Below are positions 1,864 through 59,940 of a DNA stretch of 64,000 nt, piece after piece. The number at the start of each line of letters is the position of its first letter. The first letter of the stretch is position 1. The notes under the pieces are model-generated. The model searched no databases, was not told the origin of the DNA, and saw only the letters and a list, made by a program, of their open reading frames with translations. The DNA is from Christensenella sp. UBA7571 (GTDB taxonomy: Bacteria > Bacillota > Clostridia > Christensenellales > CAG-917): the NCBI GenBank assembly GCA_002476605.1, contig DLLD01000001.1, positions 17,449 to 81,448 on the forward strand, in the 5' to 3' direction. The translations under genes were made by a program, and so were the position numbers.

Positions 1864-3134
1864 TGAGAAAACATATCAATTCGGCACTCAAAATACTCAT
1901 CAAGGTCTTTTCCGAGGGGACGTATAGCAATATGGCGTTCTACGGTGAGGACGTGAGCGATATGACGACAAAACTCGTCTACGGAGTGCTGGAAAACAAT
2001 ATACAAATCGAATATATTCTCTCATCGCTCGTACCGAAAAAACCGCAAAACGTCGTTTACGTCTTGCTCAAAATCGGCACGTACGCGCTTATGAATTTGA
2101 CGGACGTTCCCAAGTTTGCTATCGTCAGCGAGTGCGTGGAAGTTGCCAAAATGAACGGCAAAGGCGGTGCAAGCGGTTTCGTAAATGCAGTGCTTAAAAA
2201 GGTTGCGGACGGCAAATACACGCTTCCGAGTGAAAACGACGAGAATTATCTTTCAATCAAATATTCCAAACCGCAATGGTTCATCGACAAGACGGTTGAA
2301 AGATACGGCAAGGAAAGCGTAATCGCAATGCTCGAAGAGCCGTACGACGCGCTGGAACATATCCGCGTCAATTCACGCCTTGCAACGTGCGTGGACGTTG
2401 AAAAATGCCTTGAAAAACACAAAGAAAAATACCAAAAAACTGACGTCGGCGGATATAAGGTGCGCGCAACGGAGTGCGTAAAGCGTATGTTTGACAAAGG
2501 TCTCGTGACCTATCAATCGCCGTCGAGTATGCTTGCAGTGCAAGCTCTCGGAGCAAAGGACGGAGCGCAAATTTTGGATATTTGCTCCGCACCGGGCGGT
2601 AAGGCAGTGTATTTGAGCGAACTTTGCCCGCACTCTACGATAACGGCGTGCGATTTGCACCCGCACAGAGTCGCGCTTATCCAAAAATATAAAAATCGTA
2701 TGCACGTGCCCAACGTCAAAGCAGTGCAAGCAGACGCAACCAAACTCAATAACGATTGGATAGGCAAATTCGATTTCGTACTTACGGACGCTCCGTGTTC
2801 TTGTCTGGGAACGTATAGAAAGCACCCCGACGTGTTTTTGACGAGAAAGGAGAGCGATATAGCGGAGCTTGCACGCACGCAAAACGCAATCGCGCAAAAC
2901 GCTTTGGCGTATTTGAAAACGGGCGGTATGATGATATATTCCACTTGCACGCTGTTTAAGGAAGAAAACGACGACGTCGTAGACGCGCTCGTAAAGAGCG
3001 GAAAAGCAGTGCTCGAACGCATAGATTGCGATAATATCGACGGCGGAAAATACGCGGGGAACGAGGGCAAAATTCAAATTTTACCGCACGCGGAATACGA
3101 CGGATTTTATATTGCGAAATTGAGGAAGATATGA
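1863..3134 (+). CDS. rsmB: 16S rRNA (cytosine967-C5)-methyltransferase RsmB/Sun family
   Basis: NusB-like N-terminus plus SAM-MTase motifs (DICSAPGGK, TDAPCSCLGT, YSTCT). Position after fmt. Confidence 0.85.
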   Translation: MRKHINSALKILIKVFSEGTYSNMAFYGEDVSDMTTKLVYGVLENNIQIEYILSSLVPKKPQNVVYVLLKIGTYALMNLTDVPKFAIVSECVEVAKMNGKGGASGFVNAVLKKVADGKYTLPSENDENYLSIKYSKPQWFIDKTVERYGKESVIAMLEEPYDALEHIRVNSRLATCVDVEKCLEKHKEKYQKTDVGGYKVRATECVKRMFDKGLVTYQSPSSMLAVQALGAKDGAQILDICSAPGGKAVYLSELCPHSTITACDLHPHRVALIQKYKNRMHVPNVKAVQADATKLNNDWIGKFDFVLTDAPCSCLGTYRKHPDVFLTRKESDIAELARTQNAIAQNALAYLKTGGMMIYSTCTLFKEENDDVVDALVKSGKAVLERIDCDNIDGGKYAGNEGKIQILPHAEYDGFYIAKLRKI

Positions 3135-4192
3135 CGACGCAAAACGAAGGGAAAATCGTACTTTTGGGACTTGACAAAGCTCGCATTGCCGAGCTATTGC
3201 CCGATTGTCCAAAATTTACCGCGTCGCAAATATACGGTTTTTTGATGGACGGCAAGGACTTTGACGAGATGACCTCTCTCAAAAAGGAATTGCGCGAGAG
3301 GCTTAAAGAGCAATTTATTGCAAATCCCGTGCGTATTTTGCACGTTTACAAGGGCAAATCGGGCACGCAAAAGTTTTTGTTTAGGCTTGAAGACGACAAC
3401 CTCATAGAGGGCGTGTATATGCCTCACGATTACGGTGACACGCTTTGCTTGTCGACGCAAGTCGGTTGCCGTATGGGATGCACGTTTTGCGCCTCGTCGC
3501 TTGACGGACTCGTGCGCAATCTCACCGATGCGGAAATGCTCGGACAAGTGATTGCGGTCAATCGCGAAGTCGGCGGAACGGCAAAGAACAGAAAAGTTAC
3601 CAATCTCGTGCTTATGGGAAGCGGAGAACCGTTTGACAATTACGACAACGTGCTTGCGTTTTTGGACGAAGTGAGCAAAGAGGGCGGTATCAATATAAGC
3701 GAGCGTAATATTTCGCTCTCAACGTCGGGACTTTGCGACAAACTCCGCAAGTTTGCCGATAGCGGTCACAAAGTCACGTTGTCGGTGAGTTTGCACGCTC
3801 CGTTTGATGAGTTGAGAAGCGCGCTTATGCCCGTAAACAAGGCGTTTCCGATTGCGGAACTCATATCGTCTGCAAAATACTATTTTGAAAAGACGGGAAG
3901 ACGCGTCATCTTCGAGTACACGCTCATAAAGAATGAAAACGACTCCGACGCTTGCGCAAAGGAACTTGCCCGGCTTACGAAAGGTTTTCCTTCGCACGTC
4001 AATCTTATCCGCTTGAACGAAGTCAAGGAGCGCAATCACACCGCGCCCGACGTGGACGCAACGGAAGCGTTTTTGCACAAGCTTGAAAAACTCGGCGTTT
4101 CCTCAACGATACGCAAGAGCCTCGGCAACGACATAGAAGGTGCGTGCGGACAACTCCGTAGAAGATATCTTCAAAACGAGCTTAAAGACTGA
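3131..4192 (+). CDS. rlmN: 23S rRNA/tRNA (adenine-C2)-methyltransferase RlmN (radical SAM)
   Basis: CRMGCTFCAS radical-SAM cluster motif and C-terminal GACGQL. Confidence 0.92.
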   Translation: MTTQNEGKIVLLGLDKARIAELLPDCPKFTASQIYGFLMDGKDFDEMTSLKKELRERLKEQFIANPVRILHVYKGKSGTQKFLFRLEDDNLIEGVYMPHDYGDTLCLSTQVGCRMGCTFCASSLDGLVRNLTDAEMLGQVIAVNREVGGTAKNRKVTNLVLMGSGEPFDNYDNVLAFLDEVSKEGGINISERNISLSTSGLCDKLRKFADSGHKVTLSVSLHAPFDELRSALMPVNKAFPIAELISSAKYYFEKTGRRVIFEYTLIKNENDSDACAKELARLTKGFPSHVNLIRLNEVKERNHTAPDVDATEAFLHKLEKLGVSSTIRKSLGNDIEGACGQLRRRYLQNELKD

Positions 4193-5192: not shown

Positions 5193-5837
5193 ATGTTGAT
5201 TGCACCGTCGGTTTTATCAGCGGATTTTGGCAATATGGCAGAGGCAGTGAGAGACGTCAAGGCGCTGGGCGGAGATATAATCCATTGCGACGTAATGGAC
5301 GGCGTTTACGTGCCAAATATAACTTTCGGTATGCCGATGATAAAGGCAATCAGAAAGAATACCGATTTGCCCGTTGACGTGCACCTAATGATAACCAAGC
5401 CCGAAAGATACGTAGGAGCGTTCTGCGACGCGGGCGCGGATATCGTAACATTTCACCCCGACGCGTCCGAGGACGTGCAAGGCGCGCTTGATATAATCAA
5501 ATCCAAAGGCAAAAAGTGCGGGCTCGTGGTCAACGCGGACGTTGATTTCGATATAGCAGTGCCGTATCTCGAACAAATCGATTTGCTCGTGATTATGACC
5601 GTCCAAGCGGGTTTCGGCGGACAAAGTTTCAAGCCCGAGTGCCTCGATAAGGTCAGAAAAGGTAATAAGCTCCGCAAAGAGAACGGATATAAATATCTCA
5701 TCGAAGCGGACGGCGGAGTGTTTGAAGACAATATCACAATTTGCAAAGAAGCGGGCGTAGATATCGCGGTTGCGGGAAGTGCGGTGTTCCACTCAAAAGA
5801 TCCGAGGAAGACTATCGAGACGATGCATAACTGCTAA
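5193..5837 (+). CDS. rpe: ribulose-phosphate 3-epimerase
   Basis: MLIAPSVLSADF..., HCDVMDG and VDVHLM motifs. ATG at 5193 with RBS gagagg is preferred over the TTG at 5178. Confidence 0.92.
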   Translation: MLIAPSVLSADFGNMAEAVRDVKALGGDIIHCDVMDGVYVPNITFGMPMIKAIRKNTDLPVDVHLMITKPERYVGAFCDAGADIVTFHPDASEDVQGALDIIKSKGKKCGLVVNADVDFDIAVPYLEQIDLLVIMTVQAGFGGQSFKPECLDKVRKGNKLRKENGYKYLIEADGGVFEDNITICKEAGVDIAVAGSAVFHSKDPRKTIETMHNC

Positions 5838-10679: not shown

Positions 10680-10707
10680 TTGACATTTTTATAGGATAGT
10701 GTATAAT
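10680..10707 (+). promoter_or_regulatory. sigma-A type promoter driving the large ncRNA
   Basis: TTGACA (10680-10685), 16-nt spacer, TATAAT (10702-10707). The predicted TSS is about 10714, just before the terminal helix of the RNA. Confidence 0.6.
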
Positions 10708-10715
10708 ATAATTAA

Positions 10716-11292
10716 ATGGTGGTGCAGTATTCTAGTCAGATTCCACCGACTCGGAGGCGGGGGTAAAATATCGCCGAAGGGCATATCGATGAAGTTTCTG
10801 GTGACGGCTTCTTTTGCCCAAATTGGGGCTGTTGCTGGGAGTTAAGGTTTTTGGGCGGCTTGCAACGGCATGCAAACCCCGTACCAATTTCCGTGGAGAC
10901 CCAACTCGGTGGACAGCGTAAAAACTGCCTACTGACTGGGGTGAAACCTGATATGCGGTGTGAAAATGCTGTGTACAGTGTAGCCTGCTTTGAGTGACGT
11001 ATAGGGATTAGGGAACCACGCCTTTTCGTATGGCCAATACGCGACGGTGATTGCCCAATGAAATGTACGCTGCAAAAAAAGATAAGGGCGGGCGGAATCT
11101 GTCAAGGAAATCTTCTAGACTGTTCTTTGAGGCAATCTGGGGATTATAGTGTGCTCTAAGTGGCGATTCGGTTTCTTCTTTAAGACGATGCGACGAGTAA
11201 TAGGAAACTTCTCGGACGGTGACGACGAGTTTCGACGCAGGGAAATCCTACCGAACCTATGGCGCAAGGTTTACCCAAATTGTCACCACCAT
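10716..11292 (+). ncRNA. ole: large structured ncRNA, most likely OLE (ornate, large, extremophilic) RNA
   Basis: No ORF of 60 aa or more occurs in any frame between 10664 and 11307. A 9-bp perfect terminal helix joins atggtggtg (10716-10724) and caccaccat (11284-11292). Long-range complements are 10737-10744/11094-11101 and 10743-10749/10906-10912. It has its own consensus promoter and no terminator before the downstream 4-TM protein. The neighbourhood (4-TM protein, tlyA, nadK, argR, recN) matches the published OLE/oapA context. Confidence 0.65.
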
Positions 11293-11307
11293 CCAAAGCA
11301 ATAAAAC

Positions 11308-16587: not shown

Positions 16588-16908
16588 GCGAGTTAGCCGG
16601 ACGGTCGCGTGAAATAATCGAGGAAAGTCCGAGCATCATAGGGCACGGGTGCCGGGTAACTCCCGGTGAAGGCGACTTCAAGGACAGTGCAACAGAAAAA
16701 TACCGCCGATTTTTCGGTAAGGATGGAAAGGCGAGGTAAGAGCTCACCCGCAATTTGGCAACAATGCGCGATGTAAACCCCACTCGATGCAAGATAGGGA
16801 ACGTGAAATGTGGCCCGCAAGTTCCCGACATCGCTTGAGGCGTGCAGAAATGTACGTCCTAGATAGATGACCGTCAAACACAGAACTCGGCTTACAGACT
16901 AATCTCGC
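16588..16908 (+). ncRNA. rnpB: RNase P RNA (bacterial, type A-like)
   Basis: Universal GAGGAAAGUCCGAGC at 16620-16634, followed by AUAGGGCACGGGUGCCGGGUAAC...ACAGAAAAAUACCGCC. The 3' end has ACAGAACUCGGCUUACAG. P1 pairs gcgag (16588-) with ctcgc (-16908). Confidence 0.9.
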
Positions 16909-17041
16909 TATGAAAGAAGAAGGCGCAAGAGTCTTCTTTTTTCTTTTGTAAAACGATATTCTAACAACTTAAAATTGCATTTTTTAATGAATTTTGCGCG
17001 GTTTTCTTACTAAAAAATGAAATATAGGCAATAAATAACGT

Positions 17042-56173: not shown

Positions 56174-56445
56174 GTCGTAACTTCTCTTAATGCAACTTTC
56201 CCCCTTCCTCACGGTGTTTCCCCTATTCCGTTCCCCCCTCTGCACTTCGTTTGAGGGAACCCACGGAACTGCTCCGCAGGGGGCAACACTCGGCACGCGC
56301 ATAGATAGGGACATTTCCCTCATTATGCCACTGCGCTTTGTGCGCCAGCTACGCAACAACACGGCGCAGTCGCTTGTACTAACCGTCAAGCTTGGCGCTC
56401 GATGCGATCGGCGCCTTGCGCCTCCAACTCCGAATAAGTTACGGC
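56174..56445. ncRNA. unassigned GC-rich structured element (~270 nt), strand undetermined
   Basis: Closing helix cgtaactt (56176-56183) / aagttacg (56436-56443). Internal helices lie at 56299-56328, 56330-56336/56364-56370 and 56372-56376/56387-56391. GGCGC/GCGCC segments form mutually exclusive pairings (56394-98, 56410-15, 56418-22). No credible ORF. Confidence 0.45.
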
Positions 56446-56447
56446 AA

Positions 56448-56576
56448 CTTAAACTTCACTAAACGGATGAAGAGCAAGGAAACACCCACCCGATACAAAA
56501 CCCAACGTACAAGTCGTACGTGATTTTGTAGCGGATGGGTGATGACACAGCTATTCGCCGTTTAGTGAAGTTTAAG
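56448..56576. repeat. long-hairpin element, copy 1 (129 nt), beginning at the pyrH stop codon
   Basis: Perfect 19-bp outer stem 56448-56466/56558-56576. Middle stem of 18 positions (16 base pairs, 2 mismatches) 56483-56500/56524-56541. Tip acgtac/gtacgt. Shares conserved loop blocks with copy 2. Confidence 0.75.
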
Positions 56577-57309
56577 ATATTGTCGTGCCGACGGGAAGAC
56601 CGCAGACTGCACGTTCCATACTTCCCTCTTGCATAAGCGCAAAGGCTACGACGGGGATATTGTTGTCCATACACATCGTGATGGCGGTGGTGTCCATAGC
56701 TTTGAGCCCAAGGGAGATGACTTGCATATAGGTGAGATGGTCGAACTTCTTAGCGTCTTTGTTCTTCTTGGGGTCGCAATCGTATATACCGTCCACGTTT
56801 TTGGCGCAAAGAAGAGCGTCCGCACCGATTTCGCAAGCGCGAAGCGCAGCACCCGTATCCGTAGAGAAGTAAGGATTGCCCGTTCCGCAAGCGAAAATCA
56901 CGACTCTGCCCTTTTCAAAATGGCGGATTGCCTTGCGCAAGATATACGGCTCGGCAACTTTGGTTATCGTAAGCGCGGTTTGCACTCTTACGGGTACGCC
57001 GTGCTCTTCGAGTTTGTCTTGAAGTGCAAGAGCGTTCATAACCGTTGCAAGCATACCCATATAATCGGCGGTTGCACGGTTCATTTTGTCTGCGGCTTGA
57101 AGACCTCTCCAAAAGTTTCCACCGCCGATTACGATGCCGACGTCTACGCCGAGGTCTTTGACTGCGACGATTTGTCTGCAAACGAATTCAAGCTTTTCGT
57201 TGTCGATACCCGCACCGTTTTCTTTTGCGAGAGCTTCGCCAGAAATCTTGATTATCACTCTTTTATACTTCACGGACGGGTCGACCGTCTTTTGAATAGT
57301 TTCGCTCAT
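56572..57309 (-). CDS. pyrH: UMP kinase
   Basis: KRVIIKISGEAL and GGGNFWRG. ATG 57309 has RBS aaggag. Confidence 0.94.
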   Translation of the reverse strand: MSETIQKTVDPSVKYKRVIIKISGEALAKENGAGIDNEKLEFVCRQIVAVKDLGVDVGIVIGGGNFWRGLQAADKMNRATADYMGMLATVMNALALQDKLEEHGVPVRVQTALTITKVAEPYILRKAIRHFEKGRVVIFACGTGNPYFSTDTGAALRACEIGADALLCAKNVDGIYDCDPKKNKDAKKFDHLTYMQVISLGLKAMDTTAITMCMDNNIPVVAFALMQEGSMERAVCGLPVGTTIS

Positions 57310-59308: not shown

Positions 59309-59337
59309 ATTATATTATATATAAAATAATTTTGCAA
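59309..59337 (-). promoter_or_regulatory. rpsB promoter
   Basis: On the minus strand: TTGCAA (59337-59332), 17 nt, TATAAT (59314-59309). This leaves a ~90-nt structured leader. Confidence 0.55.
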
Positions 59338-59460
59338 ATAAAATTCGGGTGTTTTTGAGGAAATTTTTCAAATTTTTACGATTATTATTGAATTTTGAGA
59401 AAAACGCCTTGAAAAATGAATAATGGTAGTTGCATTTTTCCGCTTTCGGAAAAAAGTTTA

Positions 59461-59589
59461 TAAAGACCGCGATATTTAGATGAAGAGCGCGAAAAAGCCC
59501 CTTGGACAGCAACCCTAACGTACTAATGCGTACGTGAGTTGATGAACAAGGGGCTTTGACAATGCTATTCGCTAAATAGTGCGGTCTTA
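59461..59589. repeat. long-hairpin element, copy 2, beginning at the stop codon of the DUF1292 gene
   Basis: Outer stem 59463-59479/59572-59588 (15 WC pairs, 1 GU, 1 mismatch). Middle stem aaagcccctt/aaggggcttt (59494-59503/59548-59557). Tip acgtac/gtacgt. Conserved blocks atgaagagc and gacaNNgctattcgc are shared with copy 1. Confidence 0.75.
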
Positions 59590-59940
59590 CTTGCAGTTGT
59601 GGTCGCAACAGGAGCAGTGCTCGTCATCACAGCAACCGCCTTCCATCTTTTCAACCTCTGCCATAAACTCGTCGAAAACGCGTTGGAGCAAATCTTCGTC
59701 CTCGATTGCGATAAAGACGTCGTTGCCTTCTTCGTTCTCACCGATTTCGTAAATAAGCACTTCGTCCTCTTCGATGTCGTCGAGTTTTTGGACGGGTTTC
59801 ATAACGATAAACCATCTGTTGTCAACGTCGAGAGTTGCGAGATGATAAAATTCTTCGTCTTTGTCCGTTTCTTCGTTGTAAAGAGTGATGATATCGTCGT
59901 CTTCTTCCATATTGTTTTGGTCTTCAAAAAAATCTGCCAT
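59587..59940 (-). CDS. DUF1292 (YrzB-like) acidic protein with Cys/His-rich C-terminal tail
   Basis: The acidic pattern ...ITLYNEETDKDEEFYHLATLDVDNRWFIVMKP... is typical of DUF1292. Position after ruvX. The tail is GGCCDDEHCSCCDHNCK. Confidence 0.8.
   Translation of the reverse strand: MADFFEDQNNMEEDDDIITLYNEETDKDEEFYHLATLDVDNRWFIVMKPVQKLDDIEEDEVLIYEIGENEEGNDVFIAIEDEDLLQRVFDEFMAEVEKMEGGCCDDEHCSCCDHNCK

Follow-up and report, generated by a model that had tools for sequence, protein, structure and literature searches.

The bacterial repeats that come closest to the element described here are the REP sequences and REPINs of the RAYT/TnpA-REP system, interspersed extragenic palindromes that stand just after genes, are co-transcribed with them, occur in clusters and are non-autonomous. 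Their hairpins are kept by compensatory changes, and they are believed to function as hairpins of single-stranded nucleic acid and to influence the 3' ends of mRNAs. The MITEs Correia/NEMIS, ERIC, RUP and bcr1 are 100-160 nt long, form a long stem-loop in the transcript, lie at gene ends, use TA-rich insertion sites, and can supply stop codons and change mRNA stability. Palindrome-associated elements derived from IS200/IS605 have imperfect hairpins in which fixed mismatches define the active strand; they need no terminal inverted repeats, are cleaved at a fixed distance from the hairpin foot and insert strand-specifically. Integron attC sites are folded single-strand sites of 57-141 nt whose strand is chosen by extrahelical bases, and they often overlap the stop codon of the preceding ORF and form arrays of one orientation. 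Finally, quasipalindrome correction by intramolecular template switching turns one arm of an imperfect palindrome into an exact copy of the other.

In the window, by which we mean the whole 64-kb stretch of DNA analysed here, we find two copies of an element that has counterparts to these features (for the effects on mRNA and the single-stranded and cleavage steps, by analogy) and yet differs from each of the systems. REPs are 20-40 nt long and have GTAG or CGTC as a conserved head where the stem begins, whereas the element is about 129 nt long and has no such word; REPINs are conserved at their outer ends, whereas the element is conserved in an inner core of 93 nt while its outer stem varies and can copy codons. 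In addition, its orientation to the gene is invariant, and no RAYT gene was seen in the 8-kb loci read. The MITEs end in conserved inverted repeats, are flanked by a direct target duplication and occur in both orientations, in contrast to an element whose termini are its least conserved part, whose orientation is fixed and whose stem always contains the stop codon. The IS200/IS605-derived elements insert 3' of a fixed 4-5 nt target and have two end hairpins; the element has no conserved boundary word. In attC sites the conserved and variable parts are inverted relative to the element, and attC boxes and cassettes are absent here. Quasipalindrome correction would explain both far arms that track synonymous changes and double changes in near-identical strains, but it is a mutational process rather than an element, and alone it explains neither a stem that ends at 17-18 bp nor the targeting of stop codons. 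Overall, the element seems by analogy to work most like REP/REPIN and the hairpin-forming MITEs, yet it lacks the conserved head or terminal repeats and the occurrence in both orientations that define them. An orientation tied to the gene, together with fixed-length copying of the end of the host gene, would be new in kind if confirmed.

Two hairpins in the window and the family they belong to

Copy 2 of the element occupies 59463..59588 on the plus strand, which is the orientation of our covariance model (140.1 bits, E 6.8e-32), and the mRNA of the neighbouring DUF1292 gene (59587..59940, minus strand; an ORF with its translation, assigned through a Pfam PF06949 match on an orthologue) bears the reverse complement. 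Its basal stem, P1, pairs a far arm distal to the gene (59463..59479) with a gene-side arm (59572..59588) that includes two bases of the DUF1292 stop codon; position 7 of this stem is a conserved mismatch and position 8 an A.C, and 14 nt separate the core from the end of the stop codon. The core (59480..59571, plus strand) folds into P2 (59481-59489 with 59563-59571, bearing the invariant T.G and a G.A), P3 (59494-59504 with 59547-59557), P4 (59510-59513 with 59538-59541) and P5 (59518-59523 with 59530-59535), the last closed by an apical loop at 59524-59529. Copy 1 (56448..56576, plus strand; 133.5 bits) has a P1 that pairs 56448-56466 with 56558-56576, and in this stem lies the end of pyrH (56572..57309, minus strand), an ORF encoding UMP kinase whose orthologues match AA_kinase.

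An earlier note on this DNA had described both stop codons as base-paired in the basal stem, and the folds agree with it. For copy 2 the stop is the tta at 59587-59589, of which 59587-59588 pair with 59463-59464 and the third base is unpaired; for copy 1 the tta at 56572-56574 and two further coding bases lie wholly inside P1. Its further statements, that each hairpin is the first element 3' of a minus-strand gene and that the near arm holds the stop codon and last sense bases while the far arm holds their complement, are likewise confirmed for both copies. Both folds are very stable, with energies of -60 to -68 kcal/mol and z-scores of -9.6 to -13.3 on either strand, and none of 200 shuffled sequences folds as stably. 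The two copies have in common the blocks GATGAAGAGC, AACGTAC-loop-GTACGTGA, TGACA and GCTATTCGC; the intervening stems are unlike in sequence but still pair and covary. Scans with a pattern and with the covariance model find no third copy in the 64-kb window.

To find relatives, we searched a collection of species-representative genomes with a pattern made from the shared blocks, and then the loci so obtained with a covariance model built from 42 copies. The pattern returns 46 loci, of which 2 are chance matches and 44 are true and come from about 20 related metagenome-assembled genomes (MAGs): gut MAGs that bear the label Christensenella or Clostridiales, together with a few bins whose labels are evidently wrong, MAG labels being unreliable. 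The covariance model adds about 20 more copies in the same loci and yet others in loci fetched later. Pattern and model together recover about 55 copies beyond the window (75-150 bits); among the matches of the model, tandem arrays of two or three copies in the same orientation are common. One genome of 1.65 Mb, CP091723.1, has at least 7 exact-pattern matches. Because the copies were ascertained with exact words from the two window copies, the sample leans to one subfamily. Rfam 15, including HEARO, IS605-orfB and the ribozymes, gives no match at the gathering score, and at E up to 10 only a chance match to a miRNA (17.5 bits). The viral contigs scanned yield one chance match, which the covariance model rejects; blastn finds no match in plasmids and phages; and our literature search found no description of such an element. 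The window hairpins thus belong to an undescribed family of structured repeats of about 130 bases in uncultured gut Christensenellales.

Family-wide, the anatomy consists of the conserved 93-nt core, which bears three fixed asymmetric loops or mismatches, set on a basal stem of 17-18 bp, the whole unit measuring about 129 nt. P2 is TGAAGAGC/GCTATTCG, with a T.G that is invariant (47/47) and a G.A mismatch. Next comes an internal loop with G-R-A-A opposite T-G-A-C, a tandem purine-purine arrangement, then P3 (about 11 bp, free in sequence) and P4 (4 bp), a 4x2 loop CCYA/GA, and P5, which is ACGTAC/GTACGT closed by a loop of 5-6 nt of free sequence. Structure-specific enzymes can choose a strand by features of this kind, mismatches and asymmetric loops at fixed positions. 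Four known folds suggest themselves on reading the sequence, and we reject all of them: GAUGA and GAAA of the hammerhead are present without a three-way junction, UGACA/GUC of the hairpin ribozyme faces an unfit opposite loop strand, the tandem G.A of a K-turn comes without the 3-nt bulge, and a resemblance to domain V of group II introns does not hold either.

Covariation in this structure is strong. In an alignment of 47 copies, paired cells make up 97%, and for 36 of the 47 pairs both partners have changed. The score for covariation is 0.627, whereas shuffles give 0.156 (0/500 reach the observed value) and slid partners 0.07-0.11; in divergent copies, P2 and P5 likewise carry double changes. 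With the invariant T.G excluded, we count 43 G.T cells in the sense of the model strand and 26 in the other, in an alignment that is fitted to the model strand and, being made by covariance model, leans to the structure of that model. The expectation that wobbles would not decide the strand, raised for the window copies, therefore extends to the family as a whole. Since the G.T cells are nearly balanced, a constraint at the level of DNA fits better than one on a single RNA strand.

The basal stem and the end of the host gene

How does the element lie relative to genes? ORFs were called mechanically and crudely in the 8 kb read around each match. Of 53 copies, 39 have a long ORF whose end falls within the gene-side arm, and the 14 that remain are distal members of tandem arrays or lie at contig edges or after short genes; 2 of the 53 have a convergent ORF that terminates within the far arm. 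The scatter of copies over random intergenic positions, which the earlier note had set against its own reading, is not borne out. The distance from the end of the stop codon to the core, measured in 39 copies, is 0, 3, 4, 7 or 11-15 nt, and because it never exceeds 15 nt there, the stop always falls within P1 (in a copy found later, L154, we counted about 16 nt by eye). The orientation to the gene is invariant, with the model strand antisense to the upstream gene. The host genes are core genes: efp, groEL, gap, fba, pgk, gpmI, glgP, lysS, rpsI, dnaN, nadE, metA, pyrH, an FeFe hydrogenase gene and a gene with a Rho-type ATPase domain (probably rho). The names come in part from Pfam or PDB matches, and pgk, gpmI, glgP and lysS are genes that we take to be such from our own reading of their C-terminal sequences. 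Many of these genes, namely pyrH, efp, groEL, gap, pgk, rpsI and dnaN, stand in conserved synteny.

Counting outward from the core, positions 1-16 of P1 are almost all Watson-Crick, apart from the mismatch at position 7, which is conserved in 22/42 copies. Position 17 is paired in 36/42 copies, position 18 in 28/42 and position 19 in 10/42, which is the level expected by chance; from this drop we conclude that, irrespective of where the stop codon falls, the stem has a sharp end at 17-18 bp. No conserved word emerges from base counts at the boundary or outside it. Many gene-side arms are degenerate forms of one consensus, (T)AAAA[T/C]GCGC[T/C]ATTGA (also given as TAAAAAYGCGCYATTGA), and the consensus stem, TAAAAACGCGC...GCGCGTTTTTA, resembles a bidirectional terminator made of an A-tract, a GC stem and a T-tract; GCGC stands at fixed stem positions in 60% of copies. 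The whole stem of such copies could be borne by the element. In other copies the gene-side arm has nothing in common with this consensus and is made up of coding sequence. P1 is most variable in its outer 8-11 positions, and between non-orthologous copies whose cores are 90-95% identical the outer stems are 30-40% identical, that is, unrelated.

The efp gene lets us ask whose sequence the stem contains. With the element, EF-P ends in ..GEYMSRV; a solved EF-P ends in ..GEYMERV, and four element-free relatives match. The efp stem holds 11-13 native coding bases, reading TCTCGCGTATAA in one lineage and TCAAGAGTCTAA or ..TGA in others, and in each case the far arm is the exact complement. No hairpin lies over the last efp codons in 4/4 of the element-free relatives. 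In the same way 7 coding bases lie in the stem of lysS, the protein ending in ..FPTMKPLK, which we presume to be typical of the LysS family, and 13 in that of gpmI. Taken together, unrelated outer stems on near-identical cores and the efp sites indicate that the far arm is made to match the gene side and is not merely inherited.

Closely related pairs show the same tendency on a shorter scale. L152 and L153 differ at 16 of 1930 bases (0.8%). P1 accounts for three of these differences, namely a G>A compensated by a C>T in the opposite arm and a T>C by which a G.T becomes a G-C. Between L019 and L032, whose efp genes are about 90% identical, the stem shows three double changes and none uncompensated, and the homology stops exactly at the outer end of the far arm. 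The correction of pairing is not immediate, since P1 is imperfect in L146 and three central mismatches are present in L154.

Turnover and terminators at orthologous sites

We compared orthologous sites in related genomes and find filled, empty and remnant states at pyrH, DUF1292, efp, pgk and rpsI, that is, polymorphism for presence and absence together with dispersed copies. The pyrH site is filled in the window, L013 and L127 and empty in L129 and L130, and by EF-Ts the empty relatives are the closer ones (93% and 92% identity to the window, versus 90%). The DUF1292 site is filled in the window and L013 and empty in L127, L129 and L130; the DUF1292 copies of the window and L013 are only about 75% alike and the protein ends differ, while the flanks are nearly identical. 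At efp we find the element in at least three lineages, at two spacings (4 and 13 nt from stop to core), and an empty site in four relatives. The rpsI site is filled in L014, L144-146 and L152-154 and empty in L150 and L151, and in L147-149 only a stretch resembling the near arm is left, which in L147 is possibly a remnant. Over all sites, the empty ones are in L129, L130, L139-142, L150 and L151. A metagenome scan with PyrH returned only relatives of at most 62% identity, which are of no use for such a comparison, and clean insertion polymorphism between near-identical genomes was not among the loci compared.

Several copies carry traces of repeated events. In L154 a complete rpsI copy is followed by the far half of an older one, a sign that this stop codon was hit a second time. 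L146 is chimeric, its far half deriving from another subfamily, and at pgk L043 retains the first 18 nt of a copy, a truncated remnant; we had considered this an empty site and rejected that assignment. We also considered the interruption shared by L016 and L038 as a parent element, but it proved to be a mini-insertion of 52 nt. In the window's own species, an exact look-up of RpsB shows that short-read contigs end inside both copies.

The comparison of orthologous pyrH and DUF1292 ends in relatives that lack the element, proposed earlier, does yield empty sites, though none in a genome near-identical enough to reconstruct the inserted unit or a target duplication. TA or TTAA is readable at both ends of several copies, and because these words are self-complementary a direct target duplication cannot be shown. 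A duplication of TAA/TTAA would fit the window copies and L127/L013 and was rejected as it does not fit the family. We likewise dismiss ACTTCAC, common to window copy 1 and L027, as a carried-over flank, since a 4-nt excess is expected by chance among about 800 pairs.

What stands at the gene end when the element is absent? We scanned 100 nt from the stop codon at empty sites, and 100 nt from the outer far arm onward at filled ones, for a simple hairpin with a T-tail. A canonical terminator is called at 8/9 empty sites versus 4/31 filled sites; all four calls at filled sites are the apex of a neighbouring copy, and 27/31 have no terminator-like tail. This contrast between empty and filled sites implies that the element stands where the terminator would be. 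Three of the four element-free efp relatives have ordinary terminators 20-35 nt downstream, while L142 has only a 22-nt palindrome abutting the stop; the arms of native terminators run from 8 to 20 nt.

In the window the scanner calls no terminator after pyrH or DUF1292 and finds no U-tract after either hairpin, as had been noted from the letters, and the accompanying view that the hairpins are not canonical terminators also holds, the only call at the window copies being the apical P5 of copy 1. An intrinsic terminator should have a GC-rich stem of about 5-12 bp, a small loop and a U-tract directly 3' of the stem; the hairpin, with about 125 nt, 47 pairs and three internal loops, is outside that form. 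Across the family TTTTT appears only in copies with an A-run after the stop codon, and then inside the stem. On the minus strand of copy 2, the hairpin is followed by UUUAUAAACUUUUUU, a nuance on the absence of a U-tract.

Possible origins, and the neighbourhood of the copies

The reading we prefer, and to which we give about an even chance, is that the hairpin is a non-autonomous mobile element that targets gene ends, keeps its far arm by templated copying and stands in for the terminator. On this account the inherited unit would be the 93-nt core hairpin with the inner part of the basal stem, presumably moved in trans and active as single-stranded DNA, with its strand marked by the T.G plus G.A in P2, the tandem purine loop GRAA/TGAC and the CCYA/GA loop. 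It would land 0-15 nt past the stop codon of well-expressed core genes, in fixed orientation to transcription, and the basal stem would then be brought to, and held at, 17-18 bp by copying the far arm from the gene-side flank. This copying might proceed by fold-back, with extension of the folded 3' end along the flank, or by hairpin-templated DNA synthesis or repair, and it would give the far arm the complement of the stop codon and, where the core is near the stop, of the native last codons. The element would be transcribed as the first element of the 3' UTR, replacing the ordinary intrinsic terminator of empty sites, and its most likely role in the RNA is that of a stem-loop at the 3' end which stops exonucleases, ends transcription, or both. 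The sharp end at 17-18 bp and the copying of native codons together call for a templated step. A mobile hairpin explains the restriction to one clade, the dispersed copies, their patchy presence, the remnants, chimeras and repeat hits, and the near-identical cores. Among the three roles suggested earlier from the window (3'-end stabilisation, occlusion of the stop codon or control of translational coupling, and site-specific insertion at stop codons), insertion is the best fit, given the empty and filled sites, repeat hits, remnants and chimeras. Against a mobile element with a copied arm counts the orientation fixed to transcription, which is not expected from purely DNA-level transposition. 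The lack of a linked mobility gene in the 46 loci read, the many consensus stems that may be the element's own, and the imperfect stems of L146 and L154 weigh in the same direction. We put forward, tentatively and with more doubt than conviction, a stronger version of this account, in which the hairpin integrates at stop codons in an orientation set by transcription and its far arm is written from a fixed 17-18 nt of the gene end; such a ruler-like templated step would have no counterpart among described bacterial transposable elements, and it might couple to the termination of transcription or translation.

Copying would not be needed if the core inserted into the loop of pre-existing terminators beside stop codons, the outer stem being a captured terminator stem. 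The consensus stem does look like a bidirectional terminator, filled sites have no separate terminator while empty sites have one, the empty L127 site has a terminator, AAAAAAACGCGC, similar to the L013 stem AAAAACTGCGC, and the 22-nt palindrome of L142 abuts the efp stop. However, the efp stem holds 11-13 native coding bases at a place where the four relatives have no hairpin and where terminators lie 20-35 nt downstream; the lysS and gpmI stems hold 7 and 13 coding bases (with C-termini identified by reading alone), the stem is sharp at 17-18 bp as against native arms of 8 to 20 nt, and GCGC fixed in 60% of copies points to common descent rather than to independent terminators. We consider capture unlikely on this evidence, and we judge in much the same way the idea of a cis-acting RNA of the host's own 3' UTR (an exonuclease barrier, a non-canonical terminator or a switch melted by ribosomes) that spread by duplication. 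Such an RNA would account directly for an orientation fixed to transcription, for stops no more than 15 nt from the core, roughly as far as a terminating ribosome reaches, for the strong covariation and conserved internal loops, and for the replacement of terminators at well-expressed core genes. It sits poorly with conserved P2 features that become C.A and C.U mismatches on the mRNA strand, with a near-balanced G.U tolerance (43:26) unlike that of typical RNA families, with near-identical cores at unrelated genes, with the lack of a U-tract in most copies, and with a distribution that is patchy among species a few percent apart and includes remnants, chimeras and double insertions.

Other readings take the stem itself as the recognition device. 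In a guide-type RNA or DNA module (the omega RNA of TnpB/IscB, or a bridge RNA) the 17-18 nt arm would be the guide and the core its scaffold; the fixed length, which is in the range of such guides, the identity of the arm with the flank, the structured core with its conserved loops and the second structured repeat that is often adjacent all agree with this, but a perfect duplex would make the guide inaccessible, many stems agree with the family consensus and not with the flank, the Rfam families of such RNAs are unmatched and no TnpB, IscB or IS110 gene lies beside any copy in the loci read, all of which makes it quite improbable. Even less should be expected, in our estimate, of an attC-like folded single-strand site at which a tyrosine recombinase exchanges cores, a reading we would give only a very slight chance. 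Its appeal lies in the imperfect hairpin with fixed extrahelical or mismatched positions marking one strand, in the tandem arrays of one orientation, in stop codons that overlap the site and in the chimeric copy L146. Yet R''/R' boxes (RYYYAAC / GTTRRRY) are absent on reading, the stem bases being CTAAACGG/CCGTTTAG, ATATTGAG/CTCAATAG and similar; conservation lies inside the hairpin and not at its base, the neighbours are core housekeeping genes in conserved synteny rather than cassettes, and no integrase is nearby in the loci read. That the two window copies are ordinary palindromes or terminators alike by chance, both hairpins and both after genes, has next to no probability: none of 200 shuffles folds as well, about 55 homologues score 75-150 bits and most have no U-tract, and the family matches and covariation exclude a chance resemblance.

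If the account of a mobile hairpin with a copied arm is true, it describes a novel mode of existence for selfish DNA in compact genomes, namely to land on a stop codon so that the protein is unharmed, to take the place of the terminator and to keep its foldability by copying host codons. It would also provide a natural system for hairpin-templated DNA copying, with double changes between strains only 0.8% apart, and it raises the question of how a DNA element senses the direction of a gene. On the practical side, short-read assemblies of abundant gut Christensenellales break at fixed places because of the element, and it alters the 3' ends of efp, groEL, gap, pgk, rpsI and pyrH, which matters for annotation and for metatranscriptomes.

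With regard to a possible enzyme, both window copies sit between housekeeping genes, and across 46 loci of 8 kb we find no transposase, HUH enzyme, recombinase or reverse transcriptase linked to the element and no multi-copy ORF, the only recurrent ORFs there being ABC transporters and GlgP fragments. Genes for TnpB, IscB, IS110, tnpA or an integrase adjoin none of the copies in the loci read. What does recur is a second repeat family, present at about 18 loci by blastn and without a match in Rfam, one member of which (56185..56440, plus strand) abuts the far arm of copy 1 in the window, possibly as part of the same unit as the hairpin. It often stands beside hairpin copies, mostly on the far-arm side.

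A second repeat family and a mini-element

Adjoining the far arm of copy 1 (the arm distal to pyrH, at whose end this hairpin sits), we find a second repeat of about 250 nt at 56185-56440 of the window. This family is present in roughly 18 loci, and its other copies in related gut MAGs lie at 798-1047 of locus L033, 3585-3810 of L002, 2443-2711 of L039, and 3110-3347 and 5923-6070 of L043, with several in L025. Nearly every copy lies on the far-arm side of a hairpin copy, some 30-300 nt or less away from it, and one orientation relative to the hairpin prevails (about 10 of 14). The stems of the second repeat covary, and Rfam returned no match for it.

Both families carry an inserted mini-element, some 52 nt long (TAAGGRRCGAAGYGACGGAATAGCGATTGTTACG...GTCAATCGCGTCC), whose insertion is read against orthologues that lack it. 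It lies in the hairpin's TGACA loop in L038 (at about 5770-5822) and L016, and within the second repeat in L013, L011, L025 and L017. Among the small mobile hairpins of these genomes it is the third.

Variants at gene ends

In L044 (237-380), one hairpin copy stands between convergent genes and its basal stem P1 holds both stop codons; the palindromic TAA...TTA ends are used in both reading directions. At the efp stop codon of L142, a relative without the hairpin element, there is a 22-nt palindrome without a spacer (AAATGTTTGAATTCAAACATTT, 2062-2090), which adjoins the stop and takes in two of its bases; this palindrome may act as a weak terminator or be the footprint that an excised copy left behind.

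Assembly breaks and genome labels

The Logan short-read contigs of the window's species (L131-L137), some 3 kb in length, begin within copy 2, the hairpin at the DUF1292 gene, and stop just past pyrH, with these latter ends presumably falling inside copy 1. Assemblies appear to be interrupted by the hairpin element at fixed positions. Contigs near-identical to the window or to loci of the Christensenella type also occur in MAGs that bear the labels Butyrivibrio crossotus, Bacteroides or Bacteroidaceae (L013, L021, L027 and L043, CAVANK...; L017, L024 and L037, CAZCKS...; and L028), and these bins are probably mislabelled or contaminated.

The rpsB promoter and other RNAs in the window

A good match to a sigma-70-like promoter (TTTGCA-18-TATAAT, minus strand, 59309-59338) lies upstream of rpsB. 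Read in the direction of transcription, it follows copy 2 at a distance of about 125 nt, and its surrounding sequence is conserved in every relative, whether the element is present or absent. Elsewhere, the window holds a complete OLE RNA at 10703-11305 (Rfam RF01071, 403 bits), which places the organism among those anaerobic Firmicutes that possess this large RNA, and a bacterial class A RNase P RNA at 16589-16911 (249 bits).
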